Assembly: GCA_964556355.1 (NCBI GenBank)
Contig: CAZKYJ010000001.1
Coordinates: 1-38,357 of the forward strand
Direction: 5' to 3'
Source of the DNA: an uncultured Verrucomicrobiales bacterium
GTDB taxonomy: Bacteria; Verrucomicrobiota; Verrucomicrobiia; Verrucomicrobiales; DEV007
DNA length: 38,357 bases
The notes under the pieces were generated by a model that was not told the DNA's origin, ran no database searches, and worked only from the letters and a program-made list of their open reading frames with translations. Shown piece by piece: positions 3,463 through 28,686 of this stretch (positions within the stretch are counted from its first letter, which is position 1; each line of letters starts with the position of its first letter). A program made the translations under genes and the position numbers.

Positions 3463-3559
3463 GGCGCGACTATGGCAGCGAATCGCCCGAAGTGGAACCG
3501 CTGCCCGCCGCCCGACCGCGCCGCAACGACCACTGCAGGCTGCTCAACTTGGACAGCGA

Positions 3560-5824
3560 TCACTCCTCCACCGAGAATATGGCGCGCGCTACGCTTTCCC
3601 CATCGCTGACTTCGAGGCGGTGCTCGCCGGGAACGAGGGGCCAGGCGGAAGCGGAAAGGGGAGTCCCGTTGACCGACCACGACAATGCTTCCCCTTGTCC
3701 TCCGACCGCCAAGAGGTCGATCTTCTGCCGGTCGCGGGCCAGGTGCGGGTCGATGAGGAAGCGCGAACCGTCGCGGGGCATGAGGATCTGTAGTTCGCCT
3801 TCGCCGTCGACGGTGGCGCCGAGGTAGTTATGGCTGCTGCCGCACCAGAGTGCGTAGTCGGGGGGGAGGACGAGCCTGTCTCCGTGGTAGAAATCATCGG
3901 CGCTGCCGACGGGGCCGGTGCCTTCGAGGAACCACTCGGAGACAGGGTGCGGGCTGGCAGCGGTCGGGACCGCTCCGGTCACCGCGCAGATCGGTAGGGA
4001 GGTCAGAGATCCCGACTCCTCCGGGGCAGGGACGTCCGGGTCCCCGCCGAGAATGCCGATGACGATGTCCCGCCAGAGGGGTGCGGGGCCGGTGACGGAG
4101 GCGAGCTCGCGCATGGGGGCACCCGAGAAATTGCCGACCCATACCCCCACGCAGTGGGTGCCGGTCGCGCCGATCGTCCAGGCGTCGCGGAAGCCCGAAC
4201 TCGTGCCGGTCTTGCACGGGATCCGGCGTGATTCGAAAGCCAGCGGCGTGAACGGGCCGAACGACTTCCGCCGCGCGTCGTTGTCGCTGAGGATGTCGGC
4301 CACGATGGCGGCGGCCTCGGGCGAGGCGATGACGCGGTGGGTGGGTGTGTCCGCCGGGGTGAAGCTGGGAAGCGTCAGGGTTCCCCCGCGGGCGAAGACG
4401 CCGAAGGCGGCGGTGACGTCGAGGAGGCGGACCTCGGCGTTGCCGAGGATGAGGCCCGCACCGTAGGCATCGAGCCCCCGGGGCGTCCGGATGCCGGCGG
4501 AGTCGAGGAAGGCGAGGGCGTTGCCGGCACCGAGCCGGGAGAGTGCGACGACGGCGGGGACATTGAGCGAGTTGGCCAGGGCCTCGCGCACGCGCACCGG
4601 GCCCCAGTAGCGCTGGTCGTAGTTTTTGGGATCGTAGTCCGGGTACTCCGCGCGGATGGCGTCGGGCGTGTCGGGAAGGAGGGTGGCGGCGGTGAGCAGG
4701 TGGCGGTCGATCGCGCTCAGGTAGACAAACGGCTTCAAGATCGAGCCGGACGAGCGCGTCAGAGTCACGCCGTCGATCTCGCCGTGCCGCCCTCCCCAGC
4801 CGCCGGAGCCGACCCAGGCGCGCACCGCCCCCGAGCCGTGATCGAGGATGACGGCGGCGGCGTCGTGCGCCCCGTGACGGGCGAGCCGCCGGAGGTGCAC
4901 GGCGACCGTCGATTCCAGCCTCGACTGGAGATCGAGGTCGAGGGTGGTCTGGATGGGGCCCCCGAGCCCGCCGGCTTGCTGGCGGAGGTGGGAAACGAAA
5001 TGGGGCGCTTTCCAAACTGCGGGTTTCCGGGGCAAGACGGTGGGTGTTTGGGTGACCCATTCTGCGAGCTGTTCGTCCGTCACAAGGCCGGCGGCGGCCA
5101 GCCTGTCCAAGGAATCGCGGTAGCGGGCGGCGGCGGCCGCCGGGCGGGACCACGGGTTGTAGCGGCTCGGTGCGCGGGGCAGGCCGGCGAGGAAGATCGC
5201 TTCCGGGGGGCTGAGGTTGGCGGCGGCTTTGCCGAAGTACTGGCGTGCGGCCGCTTCGACGCCACGGAACCGGTTGCCGTAGGAGATGTGATTGAGGTAG
5301 CGCGAGAGGATGGCGTCCTTCGACCACTCGCGCTCCAGGCGGAGGGCGGCGAGGGACTCGCCCAGCTTTGCCAAGAAGCTCCGGCGCCGGGGCGGCGCGG
5401 CGTTCTTGACGAGCTGTTGGGTGATGGTCGAGGCGCCGGAGACGATCTCGCCGTGGCGGAAGTTGGCGATCAGGGCACTGCCGATCGCAACGCCATCGAT
5501 CCCGCTGTGCTCCCAGAAGCGCTGGTCTTCCAGGCCGATGGTCGCGGTGATGAGCCACGGGGCTACCGAGTCCAAGCCGACGGGAAACTGGAGTCGTGCC
5601 CCCTCTCCCGGGAGCTCGGCGATGCGATCGCCGTGGCGGTCGAGCAGGATCGGTGTGCCGACGATACCGGCCTGCAGGGAAGCCGGCAGGCGAGCCGTCC
5701 GCACCGCGCTCTCGAAGGCGGCCGCGAGGAGGGCAAAACCGGCGGCGAGCGCGATGGACGCGCGCTTCCTCCGGATGAATCTACGGGACGGCGAGGATCT
5801 GGACATCGGCGGTGGTCGCGGCAA
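3560..5824 (-). CDS. pbpC: Penicillin-binding protein 1C (bifunctional GT51 glycosyltransferase / transpeptidase)
   Basis: GT51 motifs are present: EDQRFWEHSGID, GASTITQQLVKN and RLEREWSKDAILSRYLN. Transpeptidase motifs are SxxK (GSILKPF), SxN (NSLNVP) and KTGT (CKTGTSSG). The C-terminal beta-domain typical of PBP1C is present (LQILMPRDGSRFLIDP...). The start may be the internal Met at 5806. The CDS overlaps the end of the upstream A2M gene. Confidence 0.9.
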   Translation of the reverse strand: MPRPPPMSRSSPSRRFIRRKRASIALAAGFALLAAAFESAVRTARLPASLQAGIVGTPILLDRHGDRIAELPGEGARLQFPVGLDSVAPWLITATIGLEDQRFWEHSGIDGVAIGSALIANFRHGEIVSGASTITQQLVKNAAPPRRRSFLAKLGESLAALRLEREWSKDAILSRYLNHISYGNRFRGVEAAARQYFGKAAANLSPPEAIFLAGLPRAPSRYNPWSRPAAAAARYRDSLDRLAAAGLVTDEQLAEWVTQTPTVLPRKPAVWKAPHFVSHLRQQAGGLGGPIQTTLDLDLQSRLESTVAVHLRRLARHGAHDAAAVILDHGSGAVRAWVGSGGWGGRHGEIDGVTLTRSSGSILKPFVYLSAIDRHLLTAATLLPDTPDAIRAEYPDYDPKNYDQRYWGPVRVREALANSLNVPAVVALSRLGAGNALAFLDSAGIRTPRGLDAYGAGLILGNAEVRLLDVTAAFGVFARGGTLTLPSFTPADTPTHRVIASPEAAAIVADILSDNDARRKSFGPFTPLAFESRRIPCKTGTSSGFRDAWTIGATGTHCVGVWVGNFSGAPMRELASVTGPAPLWRDIVIGILGGDPDVPAPEESGSLTSLPICAVTGAVPTAASPHPVSEWFLEGTGPVGSADDFYHGDRLVLPPDYALWCGSSHNYLGATVDGEGELQILMPRDGSRFLIDPHLARDRQKIDLLAVGGQGEALSWSVNGTPLSASAWPLVPGEHRLEVSDGESVARAIFSVEE

Positions 5825-8800
5825 GGCGCTGGTCGTAGAGGAGGCTCGCCCGGGCGGCGGGCCAGGAAAACGTGCCCCCGGCCACGACTTGGGTGAGCAC
5901 GCTGTAGGTGCTCTCCCCGGCGGGGAGGGAGGCGAAGGTCAGCCGGATGCGCTGCGCGCCGTAGTCGGCGTGGCCGAGCTTGGCATCGGTCGGTTTGGCC
6001 GGGATCGCGAACGCTTTCTGCACCGCGGGCAGGTCGGGGTTGAGCGTCTCCAGCGCGGCGGGAAGCTGTTCCTCGAGAACCACGAAATCGCGCGGCCGGT
6101 CGGAGGTGATCCGGTAGTTGAGCATCACGTAGTCGCCGACCTTAAAGGGCGTGCCCGCCGAGCCATCGCGCCCCGGTTCGTTGTGCGAGTAGACCTCTCT
6201 CGTCATCGCGAGATCGGCACTGCCGACCGGTTCCGCGATCGCCGCGCGGTAGGTGGCACGAAGGAGCCAGTAGGCGGGGACGTTGGTTCGGAGCCCGGAA
6301 GAGAAATCGGCGTTCAGGTTGGCAGCCGGGTGCCGGAGCCAGCCCCGGGTGACGCCGTTGGGCGAGGCCACGTAGTCGTCGCGTCCGACCCCGGCGTCGG
6401 CGAGCCTCGCGGGATCCTCGAGCTGGAGGTAGGTGTCCGCCGCCAGGAGGCGCCAGATATTCTCTTGGGCGGTGAGCGGGCGGTCGTCGATGAGGAGGGC
6501 TTCGGCCAAGCGGTCGGAGCGGAGGCTTTCGGAGGCGCCGACTTCCTGCGCGTAGAGAGCCCCGAGCGTGAGCAGCCGGATGGCAGCGGCGCGTTGGGGG
6601 GTGCCGAGGGTCACGGGATCGAGCCCGTCCGGCAGCGGTGCACCTTCGATCTCTTGGGTGAGGGTTGCCCACTCGGCGTCGGCGAGCACCGGTCCGCGGG
6701 GGAGTTCCTCGCCGGCGTCGAGCGCATCAACCTGGGGGATCGCGAGCGCCAAAAAACAACGTCCCTCCAGCCCGAGACTTTCGTCACGGCGGGCGAAGAG
6801 CGCGCGGGCGGCGACGTGGAGGTCGCCATTGCTGGGCGAGTAGTAGTAGCGACCCGGCCGCCGTCCCGTGGCGGTGGCGAGCAGGGCGGCCGCCCGGACG
6901 AACGGAATCGCCTGGGGCAGATCCCCCGAGCGCGCGCCGATGGAGACGGGATCGTCTCGCCAGTAGGCGAGCTTGGTGAGGAGACGCTCGGACCACACTG
7001 ACGTGCGAACCGGCGGGCCGGTGTTTCCATCCTCGTCATATCCCATGTCGTCGTCCAAGGGCTCACCACTTTTCGCCAAACTGATCGCCCATGAGACCAA
7101 CGCGGTGGCCGGATCGTCCGGCTCGTCGCCCCCGGGGAACTGGGGGAGCCAACCGGCGGCTCCGGCCGGGATGATCGATTCTTCGACGAGGTCGGCGGCG
7201 ACCGCGGCATCCCTGGTCGCCTGGGCGAGTACCCATGAGGGAAGCCCATCGGGGGAACTGTCCCCCGTCGATGCCCACGGGAGGTAGGCGGCCAGGTGGG
7301 GTACCAAATACGGGGCGAGTGCCGACGAGGCGAGGTCCGCCATCGCGATCCCCTCGCCCGAGCCGGGGGAAAAGGTCGCGATCTGGGCGAGCCAGCGGGT
7401 GCCGGAAACCATGATATCGACCGAGCCGTCCGGTTGTGCGCTCCAGCGGGCGGGCGCGCTGGAGACGTCGTCCCAGGTCGCAGGGGGGGCGAGTTCGCCG
7501 GTGGCGATCTCGGTGCGCTCGGTGAAGCGGGGCAAGACGTCGAGTGTGACGGCGGCGCCATCCGAGAGGGCTGCTCCATCGGAGGCGATGGCTTGGAAGA
7601 CCAGCCGTAGCGTGGTGCCGACGCCCGCCTTACCCACCTTGATCCGTGCGGTTGCGACCTCCGATTCTCCCTGAGCCAGCGCCAGTGCCTGCGAACCGCC
7701 ATCGACTAGAGTGGCCGCGCCTTCGACCTCGACGGAGAAACGAACCGGCAAGTTCGGGGCCGCCTCCTGGGTGATCTGGCAGCGCAGGATGAGGTCGTCT
7801 CCCTCCCGGACGAACTGGGGGAGGAATGGTTCCACGCGCAGGGGATTGCTCACCGGCACCGACGTTTCGCCGGCGCCGATTTGGGTCGATGTCGTGTGGG
7901 CGAGCGCGGCGACCCGATAGCTGGTCAGGGAGTCGGGCGCCTCGAACGAGAACGGCGCACGGCCTTGGGCGTCGGTCTGAACCGAGGTGAGCCAGAGCGG
8001 TCGGGGGTTCTCGTTCTCCCGGATGATGACGGTGGGGATCAGGGTTTTCTCCCGCCCCGAGCCGAGGATATAGCCCTTTTCGAACTGCGAGAGCACATCC
8101 GCCTCGGCGGCGGTCCACTGCTTGCCCAAAGCCGCGTTGGTGATGACCCGGTGGTAGCGCTCGGGGTAGAACGGCTTCGTCGTGTCCGGCAGTTCCCAGT
8201 TCCCCAACGAGAGCACCGCATCGTCGATGGCGAAGACGACAACTTCCGCTCCGGCGACCGGCTGCCCTTCCGCCTCCACCAAGACATGCCCGGTCACCGG
8301 CTCGCGCACCCGGGATTGCGGGGAGTCGAGCACCGGCGTGACGGCGAGCTCGATGGCGGGATCCCGCACCGCGAGCGGGACGACGGCGAAGCGTTCGGCG
8401 GGCGCGCCGCCCGCGCCCGGAGCTCCCATGAGGTGGAGGCGGAGGAAGGCGTTCGGGAAGTAGTCTTTGCGCACCGGCACCTCGATCCGGCCCGAGGTGC
8501 CCGGCAGCTGAACGAGCGGGAGGGTTTCCAAGAGATCATCGGTCTCCACCGTGACGCGGATGGCACCGGCGAACGGGGTGCCCACCGCGATCACCGCCGT
8601 ATCGCCGACCGCCACCCGGTCGTCGACGAGCTCGGCCTCGAAGGAAAAGTCGTTGAGCACCACCATATCCGAGCGCTGGAGCACGCCGGGGAAGGCGGCG
8701 CTGACCGGTTGGGCGTGCGGGCTCTCGACAGGTACCGCCACGACCACGTAGTCGCCGGGCGCGCCGCTGGGAAGGACGCCTTCGAAGGGCAGTTCCAGCC

Positions 8801-11771
8801 GCTCTTTCCATACGCTTTCAAACTCCGGCGCATTCCGGTAGCGCACGACGTTCTCGGAAAGGCGCTCCTGAACCGTGTTGATCGTGCGGCGCACCACTTC
8901 GACGTCCGCCTCCGCCCCGGGTGCACCCACTTTGTCCTCGGCGGTGATGGTGGTCAGGCGCACGGGCAGGCCGGTCTCACCGACCGCGCGAGTCTTCGCC
9001 TCGAGGGCGAGCGCTCTCTCGGGGAACTGCACCCGCTGCTGGGCGGCGGCGCGCCGGGTCTGACCGGCGACCGTGGTGAGGTCGACCGTCCAAAAGACCT
9101 GCGCCCGGTGCGAGCGCCCGAGGTTCGGAAACGGGCATTCACTCCGCAGCGTCACCGTGCCGTCTTCTCCGACGACCGCTTCCCCCCGGTCGGGGTGGGA
9201 GGACGGGATGGCGAGCCCCTGGGCCAAGTTTTGTGCCAGGCGTCCGCCGGAGAGGATCTTCATGCTCGCCAGCACACCCTCCATGCCCTGCTTGCTCGCC
9301 GGCTCGGAATAGCGGTCGTCAAAGGCGAACTTTCCCCAGTCGATCCACGATCCGCCGAAGTCGCCGATCTCGAACGGGTCGTCCGCGGGCGTGTGGTGCC
9401 GGAATCCGCTCTCTTCCGAATGGTATCCATCGCCTCCACCGAGTGAATAGTCGGGGACGAAGGCGGGCAGCCAGTCCTGCATGACCCATTCGGCGGTGTA
9501 CTTCAGTGTCGCATCGCGGTTGGCGCTGCCGTGAAAGAAAAACGAAGTCACCGTGGCTTCCGCCACCGTGCCGGTGGTCGTCGCGGCTGCCAGATCCATC
9601 GAAAACGTCGGGGGACGGAACTCGGCCACGTCCACCGTGAGGGTATGCAACCAACCCCCTTCGCCGTCGGTCAGCGCGAACGAGATCCGGCTCGGAACAA
9701 GATTGGCCGGGATCGGCCAGACGAGGCTTCCGCTCCCGGAGGCGTCGATGCCAATCGGCTGCTCTTCCGCGTATTCTTCCCCGACCTCGATCGAGATTCC
9801 AAATTCAGTTCCTTCCGCAGGGATGGTGAGCTGATCGCCGATACGTCTGCGCACAACAGCATAAATATGGACATCTTCGCCGGGTTCGTAGAGATCGCCG
9901 TTGGTCATGAGGAGTGCATCGTAGCCGTCCCTCTCTCCGATCCCTCCCCAGCGGATGCTGGAAGCGGGGTAGTCGCCCTCTTGGAGACACCGTCCCAGCG
10001 CATTCCCCGCGAGGAGAAAGGCCGGTTCTTCACCCTCCCGCCGCAGGACGCCGAACCGCGCCAGCCCCTCGTTATCGGTGGTGGCCTCGTCGAGGAGGCG
10101 GCCATCCTCCGCGTAGGCCTGCACCGAAACATCCGCCGCCGCCGTGCCGTCGGCGAGCTGGGAAAGTCGGACGCCTGCTCCCGATTCCTCCCCGGTCGCA
10201 ATGAAGTTCATGAACCAGTCCGAGAGCGAGATGAGCGAGCGGTTCCCGCAAGGGCGACCATCGACCCCCCGTCCGACCACCTCGAGTAGATAGAGCCCGG
10301 CCACCTGACCGCCCGCGTCAGGCTTCCATCGGACGCGCCGGGTCGACTCGTCGTTGCCGGGGGCTGCCGGGAACGAATCGCTGGCCACCGCCCGGAGGCC
10401 GAGCGCCGGGATGAGCTCGTCGGTCGCCGCGAACTGTAGGGTGCCGTCGCGCGGGTCGAGCAGGTGGCCGCCCGCATCGCTCAACGCCGGCTCCGCAAAC
10501 TCCCGGAGACGGACTTTGACCTCCGACACCGACCCGGCGGGCACCTCGGCCAGCGTCCAGGTCAGGGCGCCGGTCCGGCTGTGCGAAACGGCGACGTCGA
10601 CCCCGGAGGCAAACGGTTGGGCGATGAAATCGGCCGGCATGATGACGCTGGCCCGGCGCTCCGGAATGCTCAGCGGCCATGACTGCGGTCCCGTGGTCGC
10701 GATCCCTCCGAGCGACCGGATCCCGTCGTCGACGTTGAGGATGTATTCGGTTCCCTCTTCGAACTCTCCCTCCAGGACGGCGATGCTGTGGTCGGCACGC
10801 ACCGTCAGCCCGCCGACCGGGGGGGTGATCGTAAAACTCGCCGCGTCGAGTGCCCGGGGGTCGAGGCGGGCATTAAAGAACGCGCGGGCGAAGATCCCGG
10901 TTCGGGGTTGGTTGTAGGCACGGGCGAAGACGTTCTCGAACGGGGCACAGTAGCCCGCCGGATAGACGCGCAGGAAGTCCGTATCGTAGTCGCCGGTGGC
11001 GGCTCCCAGGCGCTCGACGACCAGCCAGTAGTGGCGTCCGGTCGGTAGGGGCGCCACCGGTTGTACAAAGACGAGACCCTGCGGTTTGCCGGTCTGCCAT
11101 TCGTCCAAACAGGCGACGACCGGATGGCGCTCGCGCGATTCGGTATCGACGAAGGCGACGCGGCCGGCAATCTCCGAGGGAAACACGTCGCGGCTGAACT
11201 GCAGCCGGGCGCGGGGCTGAACGGGAAGGTGCTGGTCGATCGTCAGTACCTGCGTGTCTCGCCGGTCGGCGTTGAAGAGTTTCACCCCGACGATCCCAAA
11301 ATCCTCGGAGGCGAACTCGGCGCCCCAACCGTCCGGGTTCACGAGATCGCCCGCCCGGTCGACGAGCCCGTCCCGCAGGGTCAGGCGGTAGGCGATCTCT
11401 GGGAAGGCGTGCTCGAAGTAGATCATCCCGCGCCGGGGCGAGATCCAGCGGAACTTGAACCCCGGATCCGGTTCCAGGACCACCGGGGGAACAGCGGCCG
11501 CCGCTTCCTCGTCCCAGCGGTCGTCCGAGCCGACCATAGCGGGATCGACCATGTCGGTGGGGAAGGTGATGAACCGGTCTTCCCACCACGGGCCGAGCGT
11601 CCCGCGGGTCTGCGAGAGCTTGATGTCCGATCCCTCGGACGAAAGTGGGGCGTGGGGGGTTGGATCGACGGATCCGCCACCGGAGTCGGCGGTGTCGGGT
11701 GCCCGTTCGCAGCCCGCGGGAGCGAGTGCGATGAGCAGGGCCAGCAGGTGGAGAACGGAGGGCGATTTCAT
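5781..11771 (-). CDS. Bacterial alpha-2-macroglobulin family lipoprotein (1996 aa), apparently without a thioester
   Basis: A lipoprotein signal with lipobox is present (LLALLIALAPAGC). A2M/MG-domain signatures include AEFRPPTF, PRPLWLTSVQTDAQGRAPFSFEAPDSLTSYRVAALA, NPLRVEPFLPQFVREGDDLIL and the C-terminal DFVVLEEQLPAALETLNP. Its position immediately upstream of pbpC matches yfhM-pbpC. None of its 8 Cys residues lies in a CxEQ context. Confidence 0.9.
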   Translation of the reverse strand: MKSPSVLHLLALLIALAPAGCERAPDTADSGGGSVDPTPHAPLSSEGSDIKLSQTRGTLGPWWEDRFITFPTDMVDPAMVGSDDRWDEEAAAAVPPVVLEPDPGFKFRWISPRRGMIYFEHAFPEIAYRLTLRDGLVDRAGDLVNPDGWGAEFASEDFGIVGVKLFNADRRDTQVLTIDQHLPVQPRARLQFSRDVFPSEIAGRVAFVDTESRERHPVVACLDEWQTGKPQGLVFVQPVAPLPTGRHYWLVVERLGAATGDYDTDFLRVYPAGYCAPFENVFARAYNQPRTGIFARAFFNARLDPRALDAASFTITPPVGGLTVRADHSIAVLEGEFEEGTEYILNVDDGIRSLGGIATTGPQSWPLSIPERRASVIMPADFIAQPFASGVDVAVSHSRTGALTWTLAEVPAGSVSEVKVRLREFAEPALSDAGGHLLDPRDGTLQFAATDELIPALGLRAVASDSFPAAPGNDESTRRVRWKPDAGGQVAGLYLLEVVGRGVDGRPCGNRSLISLSDWFMNFIATGEESGAGVRLSQLADGTAAADVSVQAYAEDGRLLDEATTDNEGLARFGVLRREGEEPAFLLAGNALGRCLQEGDYPASSIRWGGIGERDGYDALLMTNGDLYEPGEDVHIYAVVRRRIGDQLTIPAEGTEFGISIEVGEEYAEEQPIGIDASGSGSLVWPIPANLVPSRISFALTDGEGGWLHTLTVDVAEFRPPTFSMDLAAATTTGTVAEATVTSFFFHGSANRDATLKYTAEWVMQDWLPAFVPDYSLGGGDGYHSEESGFRHHTPADDPFEIGDFGGSWIDWGKFAFDDRYSEPASKQGMEGVLASMKILSGGRLAQNLAQGLAIPSSHPDRGEAVVGEDGTVTLRSECPFPNLGRSHRAQVFWTVDLTTVAGQTRRAAAQQRVQFPERALALEAKTRAVGETGLPVRLTTITAEDKVGAPGAEADVEVVRRTINTVQERLSENVVRYRNAPEFESVWKERLELPFEGVLPSGAPGDYVVVAVPVESPHAQPVSAAFPGVLQRSDMVVLNDFSFEAELVDDRVAVGDTAVIAVGTPFAGAIRVTVETDDLLETLPLVQLPGTSGRIEVPVRKDYFPNAFLRLHLMGAPGAGGAPAERFAVVPLAVRDPAIELAVTPVLDSPQSRVREPVTGHVLVEAEGQPVAGAEVVVFAIDDAVLSLGNWELPDTTKPFYPERYHRVITNAALGKQWTAAEADVLSQFEKGYILGSGREKTLIPTVIIRENENPRPLWLTSVQTDAQGRAPFSFEAPDSLTSYRVAALAHTTSTQIGAGETSVPVSNPLRVEPFLPQFVREGDDLILRCQITQEAAPNLPVRFSVEVEGAATLVDGGSQALALAQGESEVATARIKVGKAGVGTTLRLVFQAIASDGAALSDGAAVTLDVLPRFTERTEIATGELAPPATWDDVSSAPARWSAQPDGSVDIMVSGTRWLAQIATFSPGSGEGIAMADLASSALAPYLVPHLAAYLPWASTGDSSPDGLPSWVLAQATRDAAVAADLVEESIIPAGAAGWLPQFPGGDEPDDPATALVSWAISLAKSGEPLDDDMGYDEDGNTGPPVRTSVWSERLLTKLAYWRDDPVSIGARSGDLPQAIPFVRAAALLATATGRRPGRYYYSPSNGDLHVAARALFARRDESLGLEGRCFLALAIPQVDALDAGEELPRGPVLADAEWATLTQEIEGAPLPDGLDPVTLGTPQRAAAIRLLTLGALYAQEVGASESLRSDRLAEALLIDDRPLTAQENIWRLLAADTYLQLEDPARLADAGVGRDDYVASPNGVTRGWLRHPAANLNADFSSGLRTNVPAYWLLRATYRAAIAEPVGSADLAMTREVYSHNEPGRDGSAGTPFKVGDYVMLNYRITSDRPRDFVVLEEQLPAALETLNPDLPAVQKAFAIPAKPTDAKLGHADYGAQRIRLTFASLPAGESTYSVLTQVVAGGTFSWPAARASLLYDQRLAATTADVQILAVP

Positions 11772-11792
11772 GGGCGGCTCGGCTAAATCTGG

Positions 11793-14700
11793 TCATCCCC
11801 GGTCGCGGAGGCGTCGCGCCGTCTGCTCATCCGTCTCGGCCTCGTTCGTCCGGCCGAGCTTCCGGAGGAATTTGGCGCGAAGCTCGTGGTAGTAGGCGTT
11901 CTGCACGGCGGAGATGGCCTGACTGATGGCATTGACCGCGGCCTCGGAATTCCCCAGCCCGAACTCTGCCTGCGCCCGGATCTCAAAATGCTCGATCCAG
12001 TTCGGGTTCAGCCCGAACAGCGTCTGCGAGATCTCCAGCGCCTCGGAGAATCTCTCCTGCCCCAGCAGGTGGGTTCCGCGCCAGTAATTCGCCGCGTAGT
12101 CGCTCGGGGCGATGGCGAGCGCCGCCTCAGCGTCGGCGAGACCGAAGTTCCACTGGATGAAGTAGTACCAATTCCGGGAGCGATCGACGAGCGTGGCGAC
12201 CGAGTTCGGGGTGATTTGCGCCACCTTGTCGAGCGTGAGCAACTCCATCAACACGTTCCAATCGCGGTTCACCCATTCTTCGAAGCCGGCATCGGCATAG
12301 CTGAACGCGAGGAGGCTCACGACCCGGTTGCCCTCGGGGGCGGGCATGTTCGCCCGCTGGCGGGCGATCGCCCGGAAGAACTCGACGACCGTCGATTTTC
12401 CGTTCATGATTTTTCCTGCCTTTTCGATGTCGGCGAGGGCTTGCTCCGGTCGTCCGACCACGAGGAGGACGCGGGCGCGCTCCATCCACGGCTCGGGCGA
12501 AGATTTGGCGGATTCTTCGGCCAGTGCCGCCGTCGCGGATTCCAGCTCCCCACGGTGGGCGAGCAGCCGCTGGAGCGGGGGGCCGAGATCGATGACTTCG
12601 TCGAGATCCGGGTCGGCATCCCGCGCCTCTTGGTAGTCCTTTTCTGCGAGGTCGAGTTTCAGCAACTCCATGCGTGCCCGCGCCCGGCGGATTTTGGCCA
12701 CGGCGTTGTCTTCCCAGGACCAGCTGTTATTGACCAGTCGCTCCAGCTCCGCCCATTTTTCGTTCTCCAAATAGTGGCCGGAGACGCGTTGCAGGAGGCC
12801 GCGTCGCGTCGTGTCATCGAGATCCGGGGTGAGCAGGTATTTCGTCCACGAGGCAATGGCCTCTTCAGCGTTTCCCTTCTTCCATTGGATCTGCGCCTCC
12901 AGGTTGAGCAGCTCGTTCCTCGGAAGCCCGCGCCGCTTCCACTGCGTGAAATAGTCGGCGATCGCGGCCGCGTGCTCCTCCGCGCTGCGCGGGCTGCTCT
13001 CGTCGTGCACCGACGCGATCACGAGGGCGCGGAAGGCCTCGGCGTTCTCCGGATCCAGCGCGAGGATTCGCCGGGCGATCTCCGCCACCGCCAGCGCCGG
13101 GAACGTGTCCGGCTGCCGCCCTGCCGGACGCTCTTCCCACACGCTCGTCGCGAGTGCGGTCAGGGCTGGGGCAAGCTGTTCCTCCAGGTCGTTGAGTTCG
13201 GCATCGCGTGTCACGATGGATTCGACCGCCTCCTCGACCTCCTTCTCCCGCTGCGCATTCCAGACCAACGCGCCCACCACCGCCGCGACCGCCGCCCCGG
13301 CCACCACCGACCGCGTCTTGCCCCGCGTCCCTGCCGTGCGGATCGATGTCCTGACAAACTCGCGCTCCAGCTCATCGAGATCATCCGCCTCGGCCGCCAG
13401 GGAGCGTGCATCTTTCAACCGTTCGCCGCGGTCCCAGAGGAAGGCCGCCGCCCGCCCCCGTTCCTGCCAATCGGTCGCGCTCGTGGCCGCCGCCGCCCGC
13501 AGCGTGAGGAATGCGCGGTTCGCCTCGATCGCTTCGGCCAGCGCCGTCCACTTCCGCAGTAGCGCTTCGTGGGTCACGTAAACGACCCCGCCGTTCCCGT
13601 CGCCCGCCGTCCTGGTCAAGAGCCGACCGTCCACCAGCGCATCGACCAGCTTGCCGAGCCCGTCCTTGTCCGCCTGGAATAACGCCAGCGGGGCCGACCG
13701 CCGCAGCGCTGGGCTTTCCTTGCCCCGCCCCAGCGTCACCAGCGCCCGCGCCAGCTGTGCCAGCGGGTCGCGCACCGACGGGTTCGCCTCCACGAACATT
13801 TGGTAGATCGCCTCCGCACGCTCTTTGACCGCGCCCTCCAGACCGCCCAGCGCGTCGAGCTGCGCGTGCGTCATCACCTGCACCCCATCGACGGACTCGC
13901 GGCGGGCGTAGAGTTCCTGCAGGACGAAGCTCAACAAGGGCAACCCGTCAGGAGAGGAGCGCGCGTCCCGCAGGAGCCGCGCTTCCAGCCGGTCGCCCGT
14001 CGCCGGATCCTCTTCAAAATAGACCCCCGCCGCCCGTGCCGGCATCCGGATCATCAGGTCGAGATCCGTCTCGGTTGGCGGGAGTAGCGCCACCTGCCCG
14101 CCCTGCGCCAGCTCGGCCAGCTCCGGGAGGTCCTCGGTGAAAGTCGCGAGCTGGTCGCTGCGGATCGTCGCCACGATCCAGATGACCCCCGAGCGCGCCA
14201 GCAGCGCGAGCACGGCGGCGAACGCTTTGCGCTGATCGTGCGGGAACCGGCGGTCGTCCGAGAAAACCTGCTCCAGCTGGTCGACCAGCAGCACCAGCTT
14301 CGTCGGCGGCGGCTGCGGGAGCGCCTCGTGTTCCGCCACCTCTTGCGCCGCCATCCCCAAGGCCTCCGCCATCGGCGCGATGGCACCTTCCGGGTTTTCC
14401 AACCACCGTTTGACCAATCTGTCCGCGTCCAGGCCCAGCCGCCGCAGCCCCGGTAAGGCCCCCTCCGCCGTCAGGCTCGCGGCCAGCGCCGGCACCAGGT
14501 CGTCGCCCGTGGCTCCCGGCGTCATCGTCGCCACCCGCCAGCATCCCACCCCCTCGATCGCGCAGCTGGTGTGCGTCATCATCGGGATCACCCCCGCCCG
14601 CAGCAGCGACGACTTTCCGCTCCCACTGGCGCCGTGCACCAGCGTGAACGTCCGCCCCGCATCCGCCTGCTGGCGCATCGCGGTCAGCACGTCCTCGATC

Positions 14701-15452
14701 GCCTGCGAACGCCCGAAAAAAATGTCCGCATCGGCGAAGTCGTAGGCCGCCAGCCCCCGGAACGGGTTCTCGCCATGGTAGGTCACCGGCAGCGCCCCCG
14801 CCGGCGCCGCCACCCCCGCGCTCTCGATATGCTGGACGATCAGCTTGCGCAGCGGGCGCTCGAGCTTCGTCTCAAACTGCCCCAGCGCGCTGTATTCGTT
14901 GATCGCCGCCTTGAAGGTCGAGTCCTCATCGTAGAACCACTTTTGGATAAATGCATTGAGCGCCGCCAGTTGCTCCGCGCGCCGGGCCGCCTCCGCCGGG
15001 TCGTTCACCGGCATCGGTACCGCCTGCGTCCGCCGGTAGACCATGATGTCAGGCGCCTTCCGCGCCAGGTACGACTCCACGGCAGTCTCGATCTCGTAAG
15101 CCGTGCCCGACGGGTAGGGCTCGCCGTTCCGCCGCTTGAACCGCCGGCTCAGCATCGTCCCCAGCCGCGCCCACAGGATGCACACCACGATATCGAACTC
15201 CGCCGTCGGCGGGATATTCTCGGGATCCGCGAAGCTCGCCGTCGCCCGCATCGGCTCGTGCTCCCAAAAGAACGCATCCAGCTTCGCCCGCCCCGCATAC
15301 TCGAGCCGCAATCGTTCGATGATCCGCTCCGCGCAGATCCTCTCCATCGCCACGTCCCCCGGCGACGAAACAAATATGCGAATTTTCACCATGATATGCC
15401 CCGCCAGCCTACCCGGATCGCCCTGCGCCTGTAAACCGAAAACGCCGAACAA
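11793..15452 (-). CDS. Membrane-spanning STAND (nSTAND-type) P-loop NTPase with a TIR-like/DUF4062-like N-terminal domain and a C-terminal TPR array
   Basis: The ORF is 1219 aa, and the likelier start is the Met at 15392 (MVKIRIFVSSPGDVAMER...). The N-terminal ~170 aa show IFVSSPGDVxxER ... DIVVCILWARLGT ... PSGTAYEIETA ... DIMVYRR, a TIR-like/DUF4062-like pattern. This is followed by NPFRGLAAYDFADADIFFGR, Walker A LVHGASGSGKSSLLRAGVIP, Walker B KLVLLVDQLEQVF and the nSTAND hallmark VTHEALLRKWTAL. Next come a single hydrophobic helix SVVAGAAVAAVVGALVW and about 490 aa of helical TPR-like repeats. Confidence 0.8.
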   Translation of the reverse strand: MFGVFGLQAQGDPGRLAGHIMVKIRIFVSSPGDVAMERICAERIIERLRLEYAGRAKLDAFFWEHEPMRATASFADPENIPPTAEFDIVVCILWARLGTMLSRRFKRRNGEPYPSGTAYEIETAVESYLARKAPDIMVYRRTQAVPMPVNDPAEAARRAEQLAALNAFIQKWFYDEDSTFKAAINEYSALGQFETKLERPLRKLIVQHIESAGVAAPAGALPVTYHGENPFRGLAAYDFADADIFFGRSQAIEDVLTAMRQQADAGRTFTLVHGASGSGKSSLLRAGVIPMMTHTSCAIEGVGCWRVATMTPGATGDDLVPALAASLTAEGALPGLRRLGLDADRLVKRWLENPEGAIAPMAEALGMAAQEVAEHEALPQPPPTKLVLLVDQLEQVFSDDRRFPHDQRKAFAAVLALLARSGVIWIVATIRSDQLATFTEDLPELAELAQGGQVALLPPTETDLDLMIRMPARAAGVYFEEDPATGDRLEARLLRDARSSPDGLPLLSFVLQELYARRESVDGVQVMTHAQLDALGGLEGAVKERAEAIYQMFVEANPSVRDPLAQLARALVTLGRGKESPALRRSAPLALFQADKDGLGKLVDALVDGRLLTRTAGDGNGGVVYVTHEALLRKWTALAEAIEANRAFLTLRAAAATSATDWQERGRAAAFLWDRGERLKDARSLAAEADDLDELEREFVRTSIRTAGTRGKTRSVVAGAAVAAVVGALVWNAQREKEVEEAVESIVTRDAELNDLEEQLAPALTALATSVWEERPAGRQPDTFPALAVAEIARRILALDPENAEAFRALVIASVHDESSPRSAEEHAAAIADYFTQWKRRGLPRNELLNLEAQIQWKKGNAEEAIASWTKYLLTPDLDDTTRRGLLQRVSGHYLENEKWAELERLVNNSWSWEDNAVAKIRRARARMELLKLDLAEKDYQEARDADPDLDEVIDLGPPLQRLLAHRGELESATAALAEESAKSSPEPWMERARVLLVVGRPEQALADIEKAGKIMNGKSTVVEFFRAIARQRANMPAPEGNRVVSLLAFSYADAGFEEWVNRDWNVLMELLTLDKVAQITPNSVATLVDRSRNWYYFIQWNFGLADAEAALAIAPSDYAANYWRGTHLLGQERFSEALEISQTLFGLNPNWIEHFEIRAQAEFGLGNSEAAVNAISQAISAVQNAYYHELRAKFLRKLGRTNEAETDEQTARRLRDRG
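13260..13310 (-). other. Predicted single transmembrane helix of the STAND protein (SVVAGAAVAAVVGALVW)
   Basis: A 17-residue uncharged stretch is flanked by RTAGTRGKTR on the N-side and NAQREKEVEE on the C-side. By the positive-inside rule this places the NTPase in the cytoplasm and the TPR array outside. Confidence 0.6.
14607..14633 (-). other. Walker A / P-loop coding segment (GASGSGKSS) of the STAND NTPase
   Basis: The reverse complement reads ggc gcc agt ggg agc gga aag tcg tcg. Confidence 0.9.
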
Positions 15453-15630
15453 TCTCGCGTCCCCGCGGCGTGCCGGGGCCGAGCACGCAGGGGTCGCCGT
15501 TCTCGGCCCGATGGTAACAGGTGAACCGGGGGAGGGAAGGGATCATCCCTCGCGGCAACCCCGGGAGCGGCGGCCCGGCAGGCGTTCGCGAGTTGCGGGA
15601 GCGGTGCCGTCGATCCGCCCGTTCGAGCAG

Positions 15631-16476
15631 CTACGGATCGCCCGTTTCTTCGCATCCCATCACCATTGGGCGCGGGAGCGAGTCCAGCCCCATGACCCGC
15701 GCCAGGACGAGGGCGGTGAAGTAGCAAATACCCGCCGACCAGAGGACGTCGCTAGCGAAGTGCCCGCCCTGAGCGATCCGGGTGATCCCCAGAGCGATCC
15801 CGAGCGTGAGCGCGAGCGCCAGCGCCCACCATGCCCAGGGTTTGCCCAATGCGCGTCCGATGAAAAATAGGGCGAATAGGCAAAACCCCATCGACGCATG
15901 CCCGCTGGGGAACGACTTGCCGGGACTGGCCGGATCAAAGTGCCAAACCCGTTCGAAGCGCTCTTTCCCCCCGAAATCGGCGACGTCGCGGGGCCGGGGG
16001 CGTCCCCAGTGATCTTTGAATACGGCGTTGACGAGTAGGCCGGGGGCAATCGCGACTACGAGGACGAAGTAGGCCGCAATCTTTCGCCAGCGCCTCGCGG
16101 CTACCCACCACGGGCTCGCCAGCAGCACGCCGACGCCTGCCCAGGCGAGCGCTGCAGCCAGGAGTGTGCCGCGGTGGTAGACGAAGGAAAAGAACGGGGT
16201 GTCTGCCCAAGTCCCGCCGGCGACACCCGCACCCGGCAGGTAGAACCAACCCGAGAGCGCAAGATCCGCCCCCGTCATCGCGAAGACGATGGTCCCGATC
16301 GCTAGCAGGCACGCGGGAACCTTCACGAGCCAAAAGGCCCCTCCCCAGCGCCCCCGCGCGCCCCCGTCCACGTGCTGGTTCGCCTCGTCCGTCATCAATC
16401 GATCGAGCCAAAGAAGGAGCTGGCAGGCCGTCTTTGCAATCCGAGACCGAGAGCGGAGAGGCAGGCGCGATACCAC
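15631..16476 (-). CDS. PAP2-family membrane phosphatase (lipid/undecaprenyl-pyrophosphate phosphatase-like)
   Basis: The three acid-phosphatase motifs are present: KDHWGRPRPRD, FPSGHAS and RIAQGGHFASDVLWS. The protein has multiple TM segments. The start could be the internal Met at about 16395. Confidence 0.85.
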   Translation of the reverse strand: MVSRLPLRSRSRIAKTACQLLLWLDRLMTDEANQHVDGGARGRWGGAFWLVKVPACLLAIGTIVFAMTGADLALSGWFYLPGAGVAGGTWADTPFFSFVYHRGTLLAAALAWAGVGVLLASPWWVAARRWRKIAAYFVLVVAIAPGLLVNAVFKDHWGRPRPRDVADFGGKERFERVWHFDPASPGKSFPSGHASMGFCLFALFFIGRALGKPWAWWALALALTLGIALGITRIAQGGHFASDVLWSAGICYFTALVLARVMGLDSLPRPMVMGCEETGDP

Positions 16477-16752
16477 TCCGGTCGAAGGGTCCGAGCGAAT
16501 GGGGGAGGAGACCGCGATGACTCACCGCGCATGAGAACGATCGATTCGGGTATCCGGCAACCGAGGCTTGCGCGGTGCGCCGATTCCCGCCCCACCGGAA
16601 GCCTCACGGGGCTGGGCGGCGCTTGGGTACAACGCGATGTGGGCGCGTTGCCGAGGGTTGCAGCCGCGCTGATCGGACGCAGATTCTTCTCCTCGGGCCC
16701 GCCGAGTCCCCAGCCATCGATCGTGGGCCGGCGCGACGCGCGCACCGCGGAT

Positions 16753-17280
16753 ATGGATCGCATCGTGATAGTTGGAAATTCGGGATCGGGGAAGACTTCG
16801 CTGGCCAGGCAGCTTTCGCAGGTCGTGTCGCTAGCGCATCTCGATCTGGACGAGATTGCATGGAAAGAGGCGGATCCGCCGGTTCGGGAGAGCTTGGCCG
16901 AGAGCGCTGCGCAGATCGATGCTTTCACCGCCCGGAACCCACGGTGGATCGTTGAAGGGTGCTATGCATCGCTCGTCGAGTACGCCGCGAGGATGGCGAC
17001 GCACATGGTTTTCCTGAACCTCGGGGTGGAGGAATGCGTGCGGAACTGCCGATCTCGGCCGTGGGAACCCGGCAAGTATCCCAGCAAAGAGGCACAGGAT
17101 GGGAACCTCGAGATGCTTGTCGACTGGGTGAGGTCGTACGATTCCAGGGATGATGAGTTTTCGCTGAAGGATCACCGGAGGGTTTTCGCTAGCTTCAGCG
17201 GCGCGAAGGTCGAGATCACCACGAACGGCGAAACAGATCGCTACCTCGCGTCCTGCGCGGATCGTCTACCGCCCGGCTAG
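16753..17280 (+). CDS. Small P-loop kinase-like ATPase (adenylate-kinase / topology-modulation FlaR-like)
   Basis: MDRIVIVGNSGSGKTSLARQL is a Walker A at the extreme N-terminus, and the protein is about 175 aa. The longer track ORF from 16372 adds an Arg/Gly-rich non-protein-like leader, so I prefer the ATG at 16753. Confidence 0.7.
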   Translation: MDRIVIVGNSGSGKTSLARQLSQVVSLAHLDLDEIAWKEADPPVRESLAESAAQIDAFTARNPRWIVEGCYASLVEYAARMATHMVFLNLGVEECVRNCRSRPWEPGKYPSKEAQDGNLEMLVDWVRSYDSRDDEFSLKDHRRVFASFSGAKVEITTNGETDRYLASCADRLPPG

Positions 17281-17336: not shown

Positions 17337-18398
17337 TCACCCTCCCCGCGCCTGCTGGTGCTCGATGAAAGTCCGCAGCCGGCGCGGGATCAGTTCGTGC
17401 AGTGTCCCTTCTTCCGATCTGCGGAGCTGTTGGCTGACGTTGGCCGCGCTACGCATGAACAGATTGTTCGCGATCCAGCCCTGGGTGACCGTGGTTTGTT
17501 TCCAGAGGAGCCTGGCGAGTGCGAGCTTTCGAGGGTCTGAGCCGTAGAGCCCTTCCAGGTCGTCGATCGCCAGGCCGGCGGCGGCGAGGCCGTCACGCAG
17601 AAGCCGCTCGGCCGCGTCGATGCCATGGGAGAGGGCAATGGCATTGCGGCGGTAGCCGCGAGAGCGTTTGGGCTTCGCCGCCGCAGCCTTCTCGCCGAGT
17701 TTCCGCATCCTCTTTCCGAAGGCTTCGCTGCCCCAGAACCATCCCCGGCGCAGGTGGCTTCGCCGAGCATCGGTCTCCGCGGGGAGTTCGGGCACACCGC
17801 AGGCGCGGGAAGATTCTTCAGCGGCGCGGCCGTCGAGCCGGGCGACCATCTTCCTCCGTCCGGCGGAGGTGTCCCTGATCTGGAAGACGGAGAGGCCATC
17901 GCTCGCCGCCAGCCAGTGTGGCCGCCGAGTAGGAGGCAGCAGGTAGCCGCCGGCCAGACTGCTCCACGGATAATCGGCCACACTCTGGCCGGCGGCCGGT
18001 CGGACGAAGCCTGCGCGCACCGGGTTGAGGTGGATGTAGTCGACGACGCTGCGGTAGTGGAAGCCATCGTCCCCCTCGACGAGCACCGCTTTGTAGCGGT
18101 CGCCGAAGACCCGTCCCCACTGGCCGTGGCGGATATTGAACCTCCGGGTGAAGGTGTTTTGGAGCCAGCACATCCCCGCCACGAGATTCGGTTCCGGCGT
18201 TTGAATAAACAGGTGGTAGTGGTTGCCCATGAGCACCCAGGCATGCACCCGCCATCCGGTCATCCCGCAGGCTTCCGCCAAGGTGGCCAAGAAGAACCGG
18301 TGGTCGTCGTCATCGAGAAAGATGTCCTCGCGCCGGTTTCCGCGGGCCATCACGTGGTAGTAGGCTCCCGCGAACTCGATCCGTATGCTCCGCGCCAT
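17337..18398 (-). CDS. REP-associated tyrosine transposase (RAYT) / IS200-like Y1 HUH transposase with a C-terminal helical (HTH-like) extension
   Basis: N-terminal YHVMARGNRREDIF, the HUH motif in LMGNHYHLFIQ, and the catalytic-Tyr motif VDYIHLNPVRAGFV are all present. The C-terminal ~100 aa (…LALARLLWKQTTVTQGWIANNLFMRSAANVSQQL) looks like a DnaA-C-like HTH. The gene is flanked by inverted repeats. Confidence 0.85.
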   Translation of the reverse strand: MARSIRIEFAGAYYHVMARGNRREDIFLDDDDHRFFLATLAEACGMTGWRVHAWVLMGNHYHLFIQTPEPNLVAGMCWLQNTFTRRFNIRHGQWGRVFGDRYKAVLVEGDDGFHYRSVVDYIHLNPVRAGFVRPAAGQSVADYPWSSLAGGYLLPPTRRPHWLAASDGLSVFQIRDTSAGRRKMVARLDGRAAEESSRACGVPELPAETDARRSHLRRGWFWGSEAFGKRMRKLGEKAAAAKPKRSRGYRRNAIALSHGIDAAERLLRDGLAAAGLAIDDLEGLYGSDPRKLALARLLWKQTTVTQGWIANNLFMRSAANVSQQLRRSEEGTLHELIPRRLRTFIEHQQARGG

Positions 18399-18426: not shown

Positions 18427-18480
18427 TGTCAAGAATTGCACCCTGACCCCAGTTTAATCGTGGCCGCTAGTCCGTGGGGC
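18427..18480. repeat. Right inverted repeat (REP-like) flanking the RAYT gene
   Basis: The sequence is tgtcaagaaTTGCACCCTGACCCCagtttaatcgtggccgctagtccgtggggc. Its reverse complement aligns to 17271..17317, including the aaact, cac, ctagc and cgg blocks. Confidence 0.75.
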
Positions 18481-21592: not shown

Positions 21593-22078
21593 ATGCCATC
21601 CATCACCGTCCACCAGCACATGCCATGTCCGTCGGCGGATGTTTTCGGGCTTCTGCACGACTACTCCCGCCGCCTCGAATGGGATACCCTGCTGCGCGAG
21701 GCGCGGTTGACGCGGGGGCACCGGCGGGCCGCCCGAGGAGCGACGTCTCTCTGTGTGGGTAAACCCCTCTTCGGGATCATCGGTGTCGAAACCCGCTACG
21801 TCACGTTTTCGACAGGTTCGCTCGCCGCCGTCGAGATGATCAACCGGCCGCTCTTTTTCGCCGCGTTCGCTGCGAGCATCCGCCACGAGGACGTGGCAGA
21901 CGGATCGATGGCGACCTACAGACTGCGCTTCACCGCGAAGCCATCGCTATTTCGCTGGCTGCTCGAACCTCTGATGTTGGGCGTGCTCCGCTACGAGACC
22001 CGGAAGCGTCTGGGTGCCCTCGCGCGCTTTTTGCGGGCGGAGCGGGACCGGCGGCGGGTGGGAGGGCAGGTCCAATGA
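21593..22078 (+). CDS. SRPBCC (START/polyketide-cyclase-like) superfamily protein
   Basis: The ORF is 161 aa. Its N-terminus, SITVHQHMPCPSADVFGLLHDYSRRLEWDTLL, resembles SRPBCC ligand-binding proteins. Its stop overlaps the next start (ATGA), implying translational coupling. Confidence 0.5.
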   Translation: MPSITVHQHMPCPSADVFGLLHDYSRRLEWDTLLREARLTRGHRRAARGATSLCVGKPLFGIIGVETRYVTFSTGSLAAVEMINRPLFFAAFAASIRHEDVADGSMATYRLRFTAKPSLFRWLLEPLMLGVLRYETRKRLGALARFLRAERDRRRVGGQVQ

Positions 22079-25889: not shown

Positions 25890-27102
25890 GGCGGCGTTGG
25901 TGGCGGTCGGGCCTCCCCACGATACGAATTCCGGCGCGGCGCTCTATCCGGGAGGGATTCTCGAAGGTCATCTTGTGATTGGAACACCCCGAGTGGAAGT
26001 TTGGCATTGCGGTATCACGCCGTCTGGAGTCTAGCATGAGACCACCAAACCGGCCCCCCGGCCGCAACCTCAGCCAAACCCTCGCAAACTATGAAATCCC
26101 CCGGTTCTCTCCTGGCACCGCTGTCGCTTGCCATCGGCCTCGTGCTTCCTGCTTCGGGGCACGCGCAAGGCGACCCCATCCGGATCCTGCCGATGGGGGA
26201 TTCGATCACCTTTGGAACCGGCGGGACAGCCGGACTGGGAGGCTACCGAGGACCGCTCTACGACCTGCTCGTCAACGCGGGCTACGAGGTCGACTACGTG
26301 GGCACCTCGACCGGCAATAGTGAAGGCCTGGTGGAGAAAGAACACGAGGGACATGGAGGGTGGCGGATCGACCAGCTCGATGCGAACGTCGCGGGCTGGT
26401 TCAACGCGATCGAGGATCCTGACATCATTCTCCTCCACATCGGGACGAACGATTTCGGCCAGGGGAACGATACGGTCAACGCGATCAACCGGATCGACGC
26501 CCTCATCACCAAGATGGCGGGTCTCCGCCCGAACGCCCACATCGTCGTCACGAATATCATGGAGCGCGGCGAGCCGCAGAACTCCCAGATCCAGGCACAG
26601 TTCAACCCGTTTATCGAAGGGGTGGTGGAAGACCAGATGGACGCCGGCAACCTCGTGTCCTTCCTCGACATGCGCTCGGCGGTCCCGCTTTCCGACATGC
26701 CGGACAACCTCCACCCGAACCAGACGGGCTACGGGAAGATGGCGGCGGCGTGGTTCGGGGCCATCGAGGGGATCGTCGAACCGGACGACGACGTTCCACC
26801 GGCCATCGTCCGCGCGCGTGGGACCGTCGGCCGCGACTCGGTCATCGTCACCTTCAACCGCGACCTCGAGCCGACCTCGGCGGAGACCGTGGGCAACTAC
26901 GCGATCAGCGGTGGCATCGACGTCCTCACGGCGGCGCTTTCCGCCAACGGCCGAACGGTCACTTTGGGCACCACCCTGCAAAGTCTCGGGACGTCCTACA
27001 CGCTCACCGTCAACAATGTTCAGGATCTCGTCGAGCCGACCCCCAATACCATCGCCCAAGACTCGACAGTGGACTTCTTCCCCGCCACGCCGCGCGGCTA
27101 TG

Positions 27103-28657: not shown

Positions 28658-28686
28658 CTCCCGGAGGCGGCGCCGCCGGTTCCCGC

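Follow-up and report, generated by a model that had tools for sequence, protein, structure and literature searches.

A predicted membrane-spanning STAND protein encoded first in a conserved operon with alpha-2-macroglobulin and PBP1C

Genes of the operon and architecture of the STAND protein

We analyzed a 38,357-nucleotide stretch of DNA from an uncultured Verrucomicrobiales bacterium (contig CAZKYJ010000001.1; hereafter, the window), in which a gene for a STAND protein is followed by genes for an alpha-2-macroglobulin (A2M) and a penicillin-binding protein 1C (PBP1C, or PbpC). The STAND gene lies in the longest open reading frame (ORF) of its region, 11793-15452, which a first-pass annotation made from the sequence alone had reported without a strand. 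This ORF is on the minus strand, and the plus-strand frame of 11793-15452 is interrupted by many stops. The longest-ORF limit is a TTG at 15452. Because orthologs begin at M..IRIFVSSPGD (alignment of 17 full-length orthologs), the ATG at 15392 is the most likely true start, so that the reported ORF stands and its 5' limit moves. The gene, as derived from the ORF list and translation, thus occupies 11793..15392 (minus strand) and encodes 1199 aa plus a stop. Residues are numbered from this ATG, which corresponds to residue 21 of the ORF as first annotated.

The minus-strand translation contains every motif quoted in the first-pass annotation (IFVSSPGDVAMER, DIVVCILWARLGT, PSGTAYEIETA, DIMVYRR, NPFRGLAAYDFADADIFFGR, LVHGASGSGKSSLLRAGVIP, LLVDQLEQ, and THEALLRKW). 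Pfam, homolog profiles, hydropathy, and AlphaFold2 (AF2) models agree with the four-part architecture proposed there, which runs from a DUF4062/NIR-type TIR-like head through an nSTAND1 NTPase and a single hydrophobic helix to a 486-aa TPR superhelix. The protein is predicted to be a single-pass inner-membrane NTPase, with the head and nSTAND1 module in the cytoplasm and the 486-aa TPR ectodomain in the periplasm. Its closest relative is encoded in a Verrucomicrobia metagenome-assembled genome (MAG; 61% identity). A tblastn search against plasmids returned matches to the nSTAND1 module only (Streptomyces, cyanobacteria, and similar) and no full-length relative.

The nSTAND1 P-loop NTPase (aa 210-648; 13449..14765, minus strand) matched Pfam PF20703 over profile positions 1-377 of 379 (E=1.8e-82; 278.4 bits against a cut-off of 27.1), and the module also gave a Pfam match to AAA_16 (35.5 bits). 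Walker A (GASGSGKSS, K260) and Walker B (LLVDQLEQ, D371 and E374) are intact and invariant in 18 orthologs, and THEALLRKW follows Walker B. Its profile score exceeds the curated cut-off and classes the protein as an nSTAND1 member, in line with the P-loop assignment made at first pass.

The head (aa 1-195; 14808..15392, minus strand) is predicted to be a cytoplasmic NADase domain of the DUF4062/NIR, TIR-like type, based on Pfam matches of its homologs, an AF2 model, and invariant residues. The window head itself scored 12.1 bits (E=0.23) with Pfam DUF4062 (PF13271; gathering cut-off, 24.7), and an NCBIfam search left it unmatched. PF13271 was matched by 17 of 20 close homologs of the head (best E=5.2e-6), and on this family-level evidence the head belongs to the DUF4062/NIR family. 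The AF2 model of aa 1-205 (pLDDT 90) has a flavodoxin-like alpha/beta repeating fold. Foldseek searches with this model against BFVD, a viral library, placed a deoxyribosyltransferase on top (E=5e-6, TM 0.54), and further nucleoside 2-deoxyribosyltransferase (NDT) matches ranked below it. Together these results favor the DUF4062/TIR-like assignment of the first-pass annotation; the NDT link came from the viral library, and the "TIR-like" label was unconfirmed by Foldseek against PDB. A sequence search of PDB with the head profile gave only a chance match to MsrA.

DUF4062, renamed NIR, is described in three 2026 preprints as a TIR-like NADase and distant kin of TIR and NDT domains. Characterized members have a catalytic Glu at about position 97-108 plus a W-E motif, and DUF4062/TIR-type NADases are switched on by oligomerization (2026 preprints). 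The domain is the effector in Avs2 variants, Swarozyc, Evangelion, Vulcan, Vesta, and human TEP1 (2026 preprints). In the window protein, W43 and E44 (FFWEHEPM) and E100 (SGTAYE100IETA) are invariant across 45 homologs and fit the W-E motif and catalytic Glu described for DUF4062 NADases, an equivalence drawn by motif and position. Because these three residues are invariant, and given the DUF4062 preprints, the head is probably an active NADase. The earlier wording of "effector or adaptor" needs updating, since the preprints show DUF4062, once of unknown function, to be an NADase. PADLOC weakly matched head aa 4-128 to the first ~120 residues of the phage-defense candidate PDC-S60 (E=1e-6), and PDC-S60 probably likewise bears a DUF4062-type head.

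A single transmembrane (TM) helix, SVVAGAAVAAVVGALVWNA, is predicted at aa 695-713 (13254..13310, minus strand) from hydropathy and charge bias. With a Kyte-Doolittle mean of 1.87 and zero charged residues, it is the sole strongly hydrophobic uncharged stretch of the protein outside the NTPase core. Five K/R lie in the 15 residues before it and two after it, followed by an acidic stretch, in line with the basic N-side and acidic C-side described at first pass. This charge bias predicts an N-in/C-out orientation. Across orthologs, the position of the helix is conserved and its sequence is not.

The C-terminal ectodomain (aa 714-1199; 11796..13253, minus strand), delimited by Pfam, AF2, Foldseek, and hidden Markov model (HMM) evidence, comprises a long stalk helix, a short acidic linker, and the TPR superhelix. 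Several Pfam TPR families matched in this part (TPR_2, 40.8 bits against a cut-off of 27), and the AF2 model of aa 715-1199 (pLDDT 94) is superhelical with about 26 helices. Foldseek returned TPR superhelices at E~1e-8, including OGT, APC/C subunits, and a designed consensus-TPR superhelix. The TPR array, first estimated at ~490 aa, is 486 aa long.

The head was common to all 120 best database homologs (32-100% identity). In 110 of these 120 closest homologs, an uncharged hydrophobic window lies 85-100 residues past HEAL..W with 5-8 K/R on its N-side, irrespective of the downstream ectodomain. Judged by these alignments, nearly all members of this nSTAND1 clade have the TM helix; the helix noted in the first-pass annotation exists, and the idea that it is a peculiarity of the window protein was rejected. 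In nine paralogs from a genome scan, the regions past the helix are WD40 propellers, a PQQ/FG-GAP propeller, other TPR arrays, or unannotated domains. Since the helix is present whatever follows it and the paralog domains vary, we regard the NIR domain, nSTAND1, and TM helix as a constant chassis with swappable ectodomains. Published descriptions naming nSTAND1 contained no mention that we could find of a near-universal TM helix or of a link to A2M-PbpC, and Dore et al. (2024) predicted periplasmic CLec domains for some NACHT-type targets of diversity-generating retroelements, no more. The A2M-linked STAND and paralogs co-occur in several genomes, e.g., Luteolibacter (loci L010 and L018). At L007, a second nSTAND1 protein (2540-7546; 1668 aa, WD40 propellers) is encoded 2.5 kb upstream of the A2M-linked STAND on the same contig.

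Conservation of the operon and of its TPR member

The STAND, A2M, and PbpC genes of the window lie in this order on one strand. A2M (5781..11771, minus strand; 1996 aa; Pfam bMG3, A2M_BRD, A2M, and bMG10) starts 21 nt past the STAND stop and has a lipoprotein-type signal, MKSPSVLHLLALLIALAPAGC (…LAPAGC), in which the lipobox residue at -3 is atypical (P). Its closest relative, from Prosthecobacter, is 55% identical. A profile of the A2M family (7 sequences) matched Escherichia coli YfhM (5a42, 4ziq) in PDB at 2e-46, and also Salmonella A2M (4u48); phmmer searches of PDB with the single A2M sequence, and with its TED region, gave no match. PbpC (3560..5806, minus strand) has transglycosylase, transpeptidase, and BiPBP_C domains (NCBIfam TIGR02073 and Pfam) and scored 517 bits with TIGR02073 PBP_1c, against a cut-off of 494. 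Its candidate start codons are at 5824 and 5806, and the gene overlaps the 3' end of A2M.

Order and strand were kept in 7/7 ortholog loci (L001-L008, the paralog at L007 not being counted separately), which span 32-61% STAND identity and have intergenic gaps of -4 to +27 nt. The contigs examined here were those of six orthologs at 32-58% identity. The genes flanking these seven operons are unrelated and differ. A genome scan for the head gave 37 loci, nearly all from Verrucomicrobiota, and all loci were then searched by tblastn. A2M was directly downstream in 13/13 loci whose STAND match reaches the TPR domain, and PbpC followed A2M in 12 of the 13; at L003 the contig ends within the A2M gene. 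None of the 23 paralog loci with at least 6 kb of downstream DNA had A2M or PbpC. The cultured Prosthecobacter dejongeii (L046), found via its A2M, encodes nSTAND1 (1221 aa), A2M, and PbpC in succession. Including P. dejongeii, the fused operon was present at 14 distinct loci besides the window, and all have A2M next.

Chance adjacency to A2M-PbpC was rejected on these counts (13/13 versus 0/23) and on the reverse test described below (50/51). Judged by gene order across loci, the STAND gene opens a strictly conserved operon that continues with A2M and PBP1C. The first-pass annotation had framed the protein as part of an NLR-like conflict system; the STAND NTPase architecture agrees with that framing, but the gene heads a conserved A2M-PBP1C operon and is not a free-standing defense-island NLR. 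The annotation had also held that homologs placed uniformly in core-metabolic operons would speak against a conflict role. The homologs do share a conserved operon, which comes near to that condition, but the operon is one of envelope defense and repair, not core metabolism. A promoter and terminator scan of 3300-16000 gave chance-level counts with none at gene junctions, which in this high-GC organism is uninformative on operon boundaries.

Two of the fused loci have further features. At L046 (JACHIF010000003.1, locus 3273-6017), a phage-type integrase and HTH_33/DDE_3 transposase fragments precede STAND-A2M-PbpC, and a SLATT-domain gene lies downstream; the integrase/transposase context may signal mobility or an island border. 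At L012 (13655-15382; Akkermansiaceae MAG FRAM18_bin328), A2M is cut to about its C-terminal third (query residues 1381-1992) and the STAND match ends at residue 968. STAND and PbpC are kept there, and the locus could be a decaying or remodeled module.

At locus L047, the place of the STAND gene before A2M is taken by a gene for a TPR protein of 469 aa that has a signal sequence at its N-terminus. The HMM of the window ectodomain family aligned with this protein collinearly and at full length (HMM positions 52-486, E=2e-35), and it gave far lower scores or none with the TPR arrays of nSTAND1 paralogs. Scanning metagenomes with the A2M alignment as seed yielded 69 loci, which were analyzed together with L047 and L048. 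An ectodomain homolog was directly upstream of A2M in 50 of the 51 metagenomic loci having upstream DNA, as a stand-alone TPR ORF in 49 and as a STAND fusion in one, and PbpC was downstream of A2M in 37 of the 42 loci with downstream DNA. The exception, L048, has a distant thioester-bearing A2M and neither PbpC nor an upstream TPR gene. Some metagenome loci, e.g., L061, L069, L070, and L114, lack a detectable PbpC despite >1.5 kb of downstream DNA. Three-gene operons that combine a secreted TPR protein of ~470 aa with a thioester-bearing A2M and with PBP1C are widespread in soil and other metagenomes (L047-L117).

Most stand-alone TPR ORFs (~450-530 aa; e.g., L047, 8378-9787, and L054, 4379-5731) have signal-peptide-like N-termini, and the TM helix of the fusion occupies the exact place of this signal peptide. 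Because the stand-alone homologs carry signal peptides at the TM-helix position, and because the operon partners are periplasmic, aa 714-1199 are predicted to be periplasmic, which backs the topology proposed at first pass, with the sensor outside and the NTPase and effector inside. By homology, the fused ectodomain is a version of the secreted TPR protein that accompanies a clade of A2M-PBP1C operons; by its distribution, it is a dedicated partner of the A2M-PBP1C pair, specific to A2M-PbpC operons. A profile search seeded with the alignment of the C-terminal domain returned a flood of generic TPR proteins and missed the true family. The bacterial A2M literature consulted yielded no description of a TPR or STAND partner, and we found no report joining STAND proteins to A2M-PbpC. 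Likewise, no published account of this architecture together with A2M-PbpC was found, in agreement with the first-pass statement that no function had been shown for it. Directly upstream of the stand-alone TPR gene, L047 carries NMN-transporter (PnuC-like) and AAA_28 genes of the NAD-salvage type (6659-8235); these neighbors may be there by chance and are of note given the NADase in the fused form.

The CxEQ thioester motif was not found in the window A2M or in eight orthologs, and the window A2M reads GEGIAMAD at the position aligned with YPHGCFEQ. When fused-operon A2Ms were aligned with 13 A2Ms from stand-alone operons, unrelated residues occupied the thioester position in 11/11 of the former (the window among them), and the latter read YPHGCFEQ in 11/13 and GCFDQ in 2/13 (L058 and L113). 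CxEQ was present in 38 of the 41 full-length A2Ms of the metagenome set. The bait-region domain is retained in the thioester-less window A2M, as judged by Pfam. Fused-operon A2Ms make up a single clade that branches within the stand-alone A2Ms (100/100 neighbor-joining bootstraps), and they have diverged to 28-36% identity with the arrangement kept. Repeated independent STAND-TPR fusions were rejected because the fused A2Ms are monophyletic. Since they form one clade, the fusion and the thioester loss are probably a single ancestral event.

Other genes of the window lie beyond the operon. Just upstream of the STAND gene, a PAP2 phosphatase ORF (15631-16476, minus strand) and a P-loop ORF (AAA_18/zeta-toxin-like; 16372-17280, plus strand) share about 100 nt in a head-to-head overlap. 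An ORF of 353 aa (17337-18398, minus strand), located ~2 kb upstream of the operon, encodes within its first 123 residues an IS200-like Y1 transposase domain (E=1.5e-8); IS200 transposases are typically shorter. Several large proteins predicted to be surface-exposed or secreted are encoded at 18467-21190 (minus strand), 23511-25889 (minus strand), and 26750-31093 (plus strand), with Big_9/cadherin-like Ig domains, G8 plus a CEMIP beta-helix, and TSP3 repeats among them. The large ORFs 22075-23514, 31156-32061, and 32091-35282 were unmatched in a Pfam search.

Proposed envelope signaling and competing readings

A2Ms undergo a large conformational change upon cleavage of the bait by a protease, and STAND proteins, which are autoinhibited as monomers, oligomerize when they bind a ligand. 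We consider it likely that the window encodes a membrane-spanning STAND protein whose periplasmic TPR domain works with A2M-PBP1C. The wider reading, in which STAND, A2M, and PBP1C form one envelope-surveillance module that couples bait cleavage to the NADase, seems to us evenly balanced between right and wrong. Under this reading, the TPR ectodomain would bind or monitor the inner-membrane-anchored A2M, and possibly PBP1C too. A foreign protease that had passed the outer membrane would cleave the A2M bait, and the conformational change of A2M would be read by the TPR domain. The stalk helix and then the TM helix would relay the signal, lifting STAND autoinhibition. ATP-dependent oligomerization would then gather the N-terminal NADase domains, and NAD+ would be hydrolyzed, leading to growth arrest or death. 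The thioester-less A2M would act as a bait or decoy and not as a covalent trap, in analogy to the guard model proposed for NLRs of plants. As for the steps that lead from bait cleavage to NAD+ depletion, we offer this particular sequence tentatively, as a possible rather than a probable course of events. We are more doubtful of the broadest version, in which a trans-membrane guard receptor with an A2M decoy, and a chassis bearing WD40, PQQ/FG-GAP, TPR, and FGE ectodomains, would represent a large unrecognized NLR-like family that surveys the periplasm.

Several points weigh against the surveillance reading. At 12 bits, the DUF4062 score of the window protein itself falls under the Pfam cut-off of 24.7, and Foldseek of the head against PDB gave weak generic flavodoxin-like matches, with TIR-STING at rank 29 (TM 0.42). 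The fusion and the thioester loss map to one clade and hence to one event, with no replicated correlation. The thioester-less MagD still traps proteases, so thioester loss alone makes no decoy. PADLOC and Pfam searches of the window found no known defense system, and the neighborhood consists of ordinary chromosomal genes; the PADLOC check proposed at first pass thus returned only the weak head match to PDC-S60. The topology, the NADase activity, and the contact between TPR and A2M are all things that we infer. Signaling could run inside-out, or the cue for the TPR domain could be PBP1C or peptidoglycan instead of A2M.

An inside-out regulator or scaffold is modeled on the TPR-containing Lpo-type cofactors that regulate class A PBPs. 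The TPR domain would assemble, position, or activate A2M and/or PBP1C, and the STAND-NADase would gate this activity by ATP/NAD+ status, with no killing. Such a role would suit the far commoner stand-alone TPR-A2M-PbpC arrangement (49/51), which implies that the TPR function needs no STAND, as well as the nearly constant presence of PbpC (37/42) and a window neighborhood that is no defense island. However, characterized DUF4062 domains are all NAD+-depleting effectors, and neither the catalytic Glu nor the W-E motif nor Walker A/B varies among deeply diverged homologs. The head-nSTAND1-TM chassis bears many unrelated ectodomains, the pattern seen when sensors are exchanged and the effector stays fixed, and an inside-out role leaves the thioester loss unexplained; we consider such a role unlikely. 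A different cue for the ectodomain, such as peptidoglycan fragments, PBP1C activity, or a foreign periplasmic protein, with A2M and PBP1C as co-regulated damage-limiting helpers, also appears improbable. TPR superhelices are generic binders of peptides and proteins, linkage alone cannot tell whether the ligand is an operon partner, or which one, and L012 keeps STAND and PbpC though its A2M is cut to the C-terminal third. Against this stand the TPR gene, which always adjoins A2M, the A2M-seeded loci without detectable PbpC, and the loss of the thioester exactly in the fused clade, which points to an altered role of A2M.

PsAvs2 and similar NIR/DUF4062-STAND-TPR proteins have been proven to act as antiphage sensors in the cytoplasm, and the head weakly matches PDC-S60. 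The window protein might by analogy be an ordinary cytoplasmic Avs-like antiphage STAND, with a buried linker helix, phage sensing in the cytoplasm, and only incidental adjacency to A2M-PbpC. We judge this very improbable, since the stand-alone TPR homologs carry signal peptides, the operon linkage is 13/13 versus 0/23 (and 50/51 in the reverse test), and PADLOC gave no Avs match. In addition, the helix is uncharged and has a strong positive-inside bias, and its hydrophobicity is kept in 110 of 120 homologs.

Comparison with known systems and significance

PsAvs2-type Avs proteins share with the window protein a DUF4062-type head with a catalytic Glu, a STAND NTPase, and a C-terminal TPR region (bioRxiv 10.64898/2026.09.04.749371). 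A similar logic would be expected here, with ligand binding leading to oligomerization and NADase activation. In contrast to Avs, the window NTPase is of the nSTAND1 clade, a TM helix is predicted between the NTPase and the repeats and would place the sensor in the periplasm, and the gene is fixed in an A2M-PBP1C operon and not in defense islands. Judged by the PADLOC result and by the predicted sensor location, the window STAND is not an Avs. With the nSTAND1 conflict NTPases (Kaur et al. 2021, eLife e70394), it shares the full-length nSTAND1 module and variable effector and repeat domains.

The type I A2M-PBP1C operons (E. coli yfhM-pbpC, Salmonella Sa-A2M) likewise have an A2M lipoprotein gene followed by pbpC on the same strand, and the window A2M has the multi-MG architecture and bait-region domain of type I. 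It differs in having no CxEQ, the defining feature of type I, and the operon differs in its extra upstream TPR member, fused in the window to a STAND-NADase. Type II is represented by MagD of Pseudomonas aeruginosa (magABCDEF; PMC5764988), which is also a thioester-less periplasmic A2M and functions in a complex with partners from its operon, one of them membrane-anchored. Unlike type II, the window operon has no mag genes, its only partners being PBP1C and the TPR-STAND, and its A2M clusters with thioester-bearing, PbpC-linked A2Ms. In its residues and gene context, the window A2M fits neither type I (no thioester) nor type II (no six-gene mag/yfa-type operon).

PknD-type Ser/Thr kinases, with a beta-propeller ectodomain, and ToxR-like regulators are also single-pass N-in/C-out proteins with a cytoplasmic module and an external sensor. 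The predicted output of the window protein differs from theirs in being a STAND oligomerization switch with an NADase and not a kinase or DNA-binding domain. To our knowledge, the functionally characterized bacterial NLR-like STANDs (Avs, bNACHT) all sense their ligands in the cytoplasm. An NLR-like STAND with an NADase effector is an already known kind of protein. The features that appear new, as read from the sequences compared, are the predicted periplasmic sensor, the apparently obligatory coupling to A2M-PBP1C, the TPR partner in nearly all examined operons of this A2M clade, and the decoy-like A2M.

The long-puzzling A2M-PBP1C "periplasmic defense" operon gains a third conserved partner, the TPR protein (50/51 loci of this clade with upstream DNA). 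If the surveillance reading is true, NLR-type immunity would extend to the cell envelope, with a sensor tied to a protease bait and a peptidoglycan synthase, and the system would be a bacterial case of indirect (guard/decoy) recognition. The guard reading gives a testable read-out, NAD+ depletion, and Prosthecobacter dejongeii is a cultured carrier of the full module.

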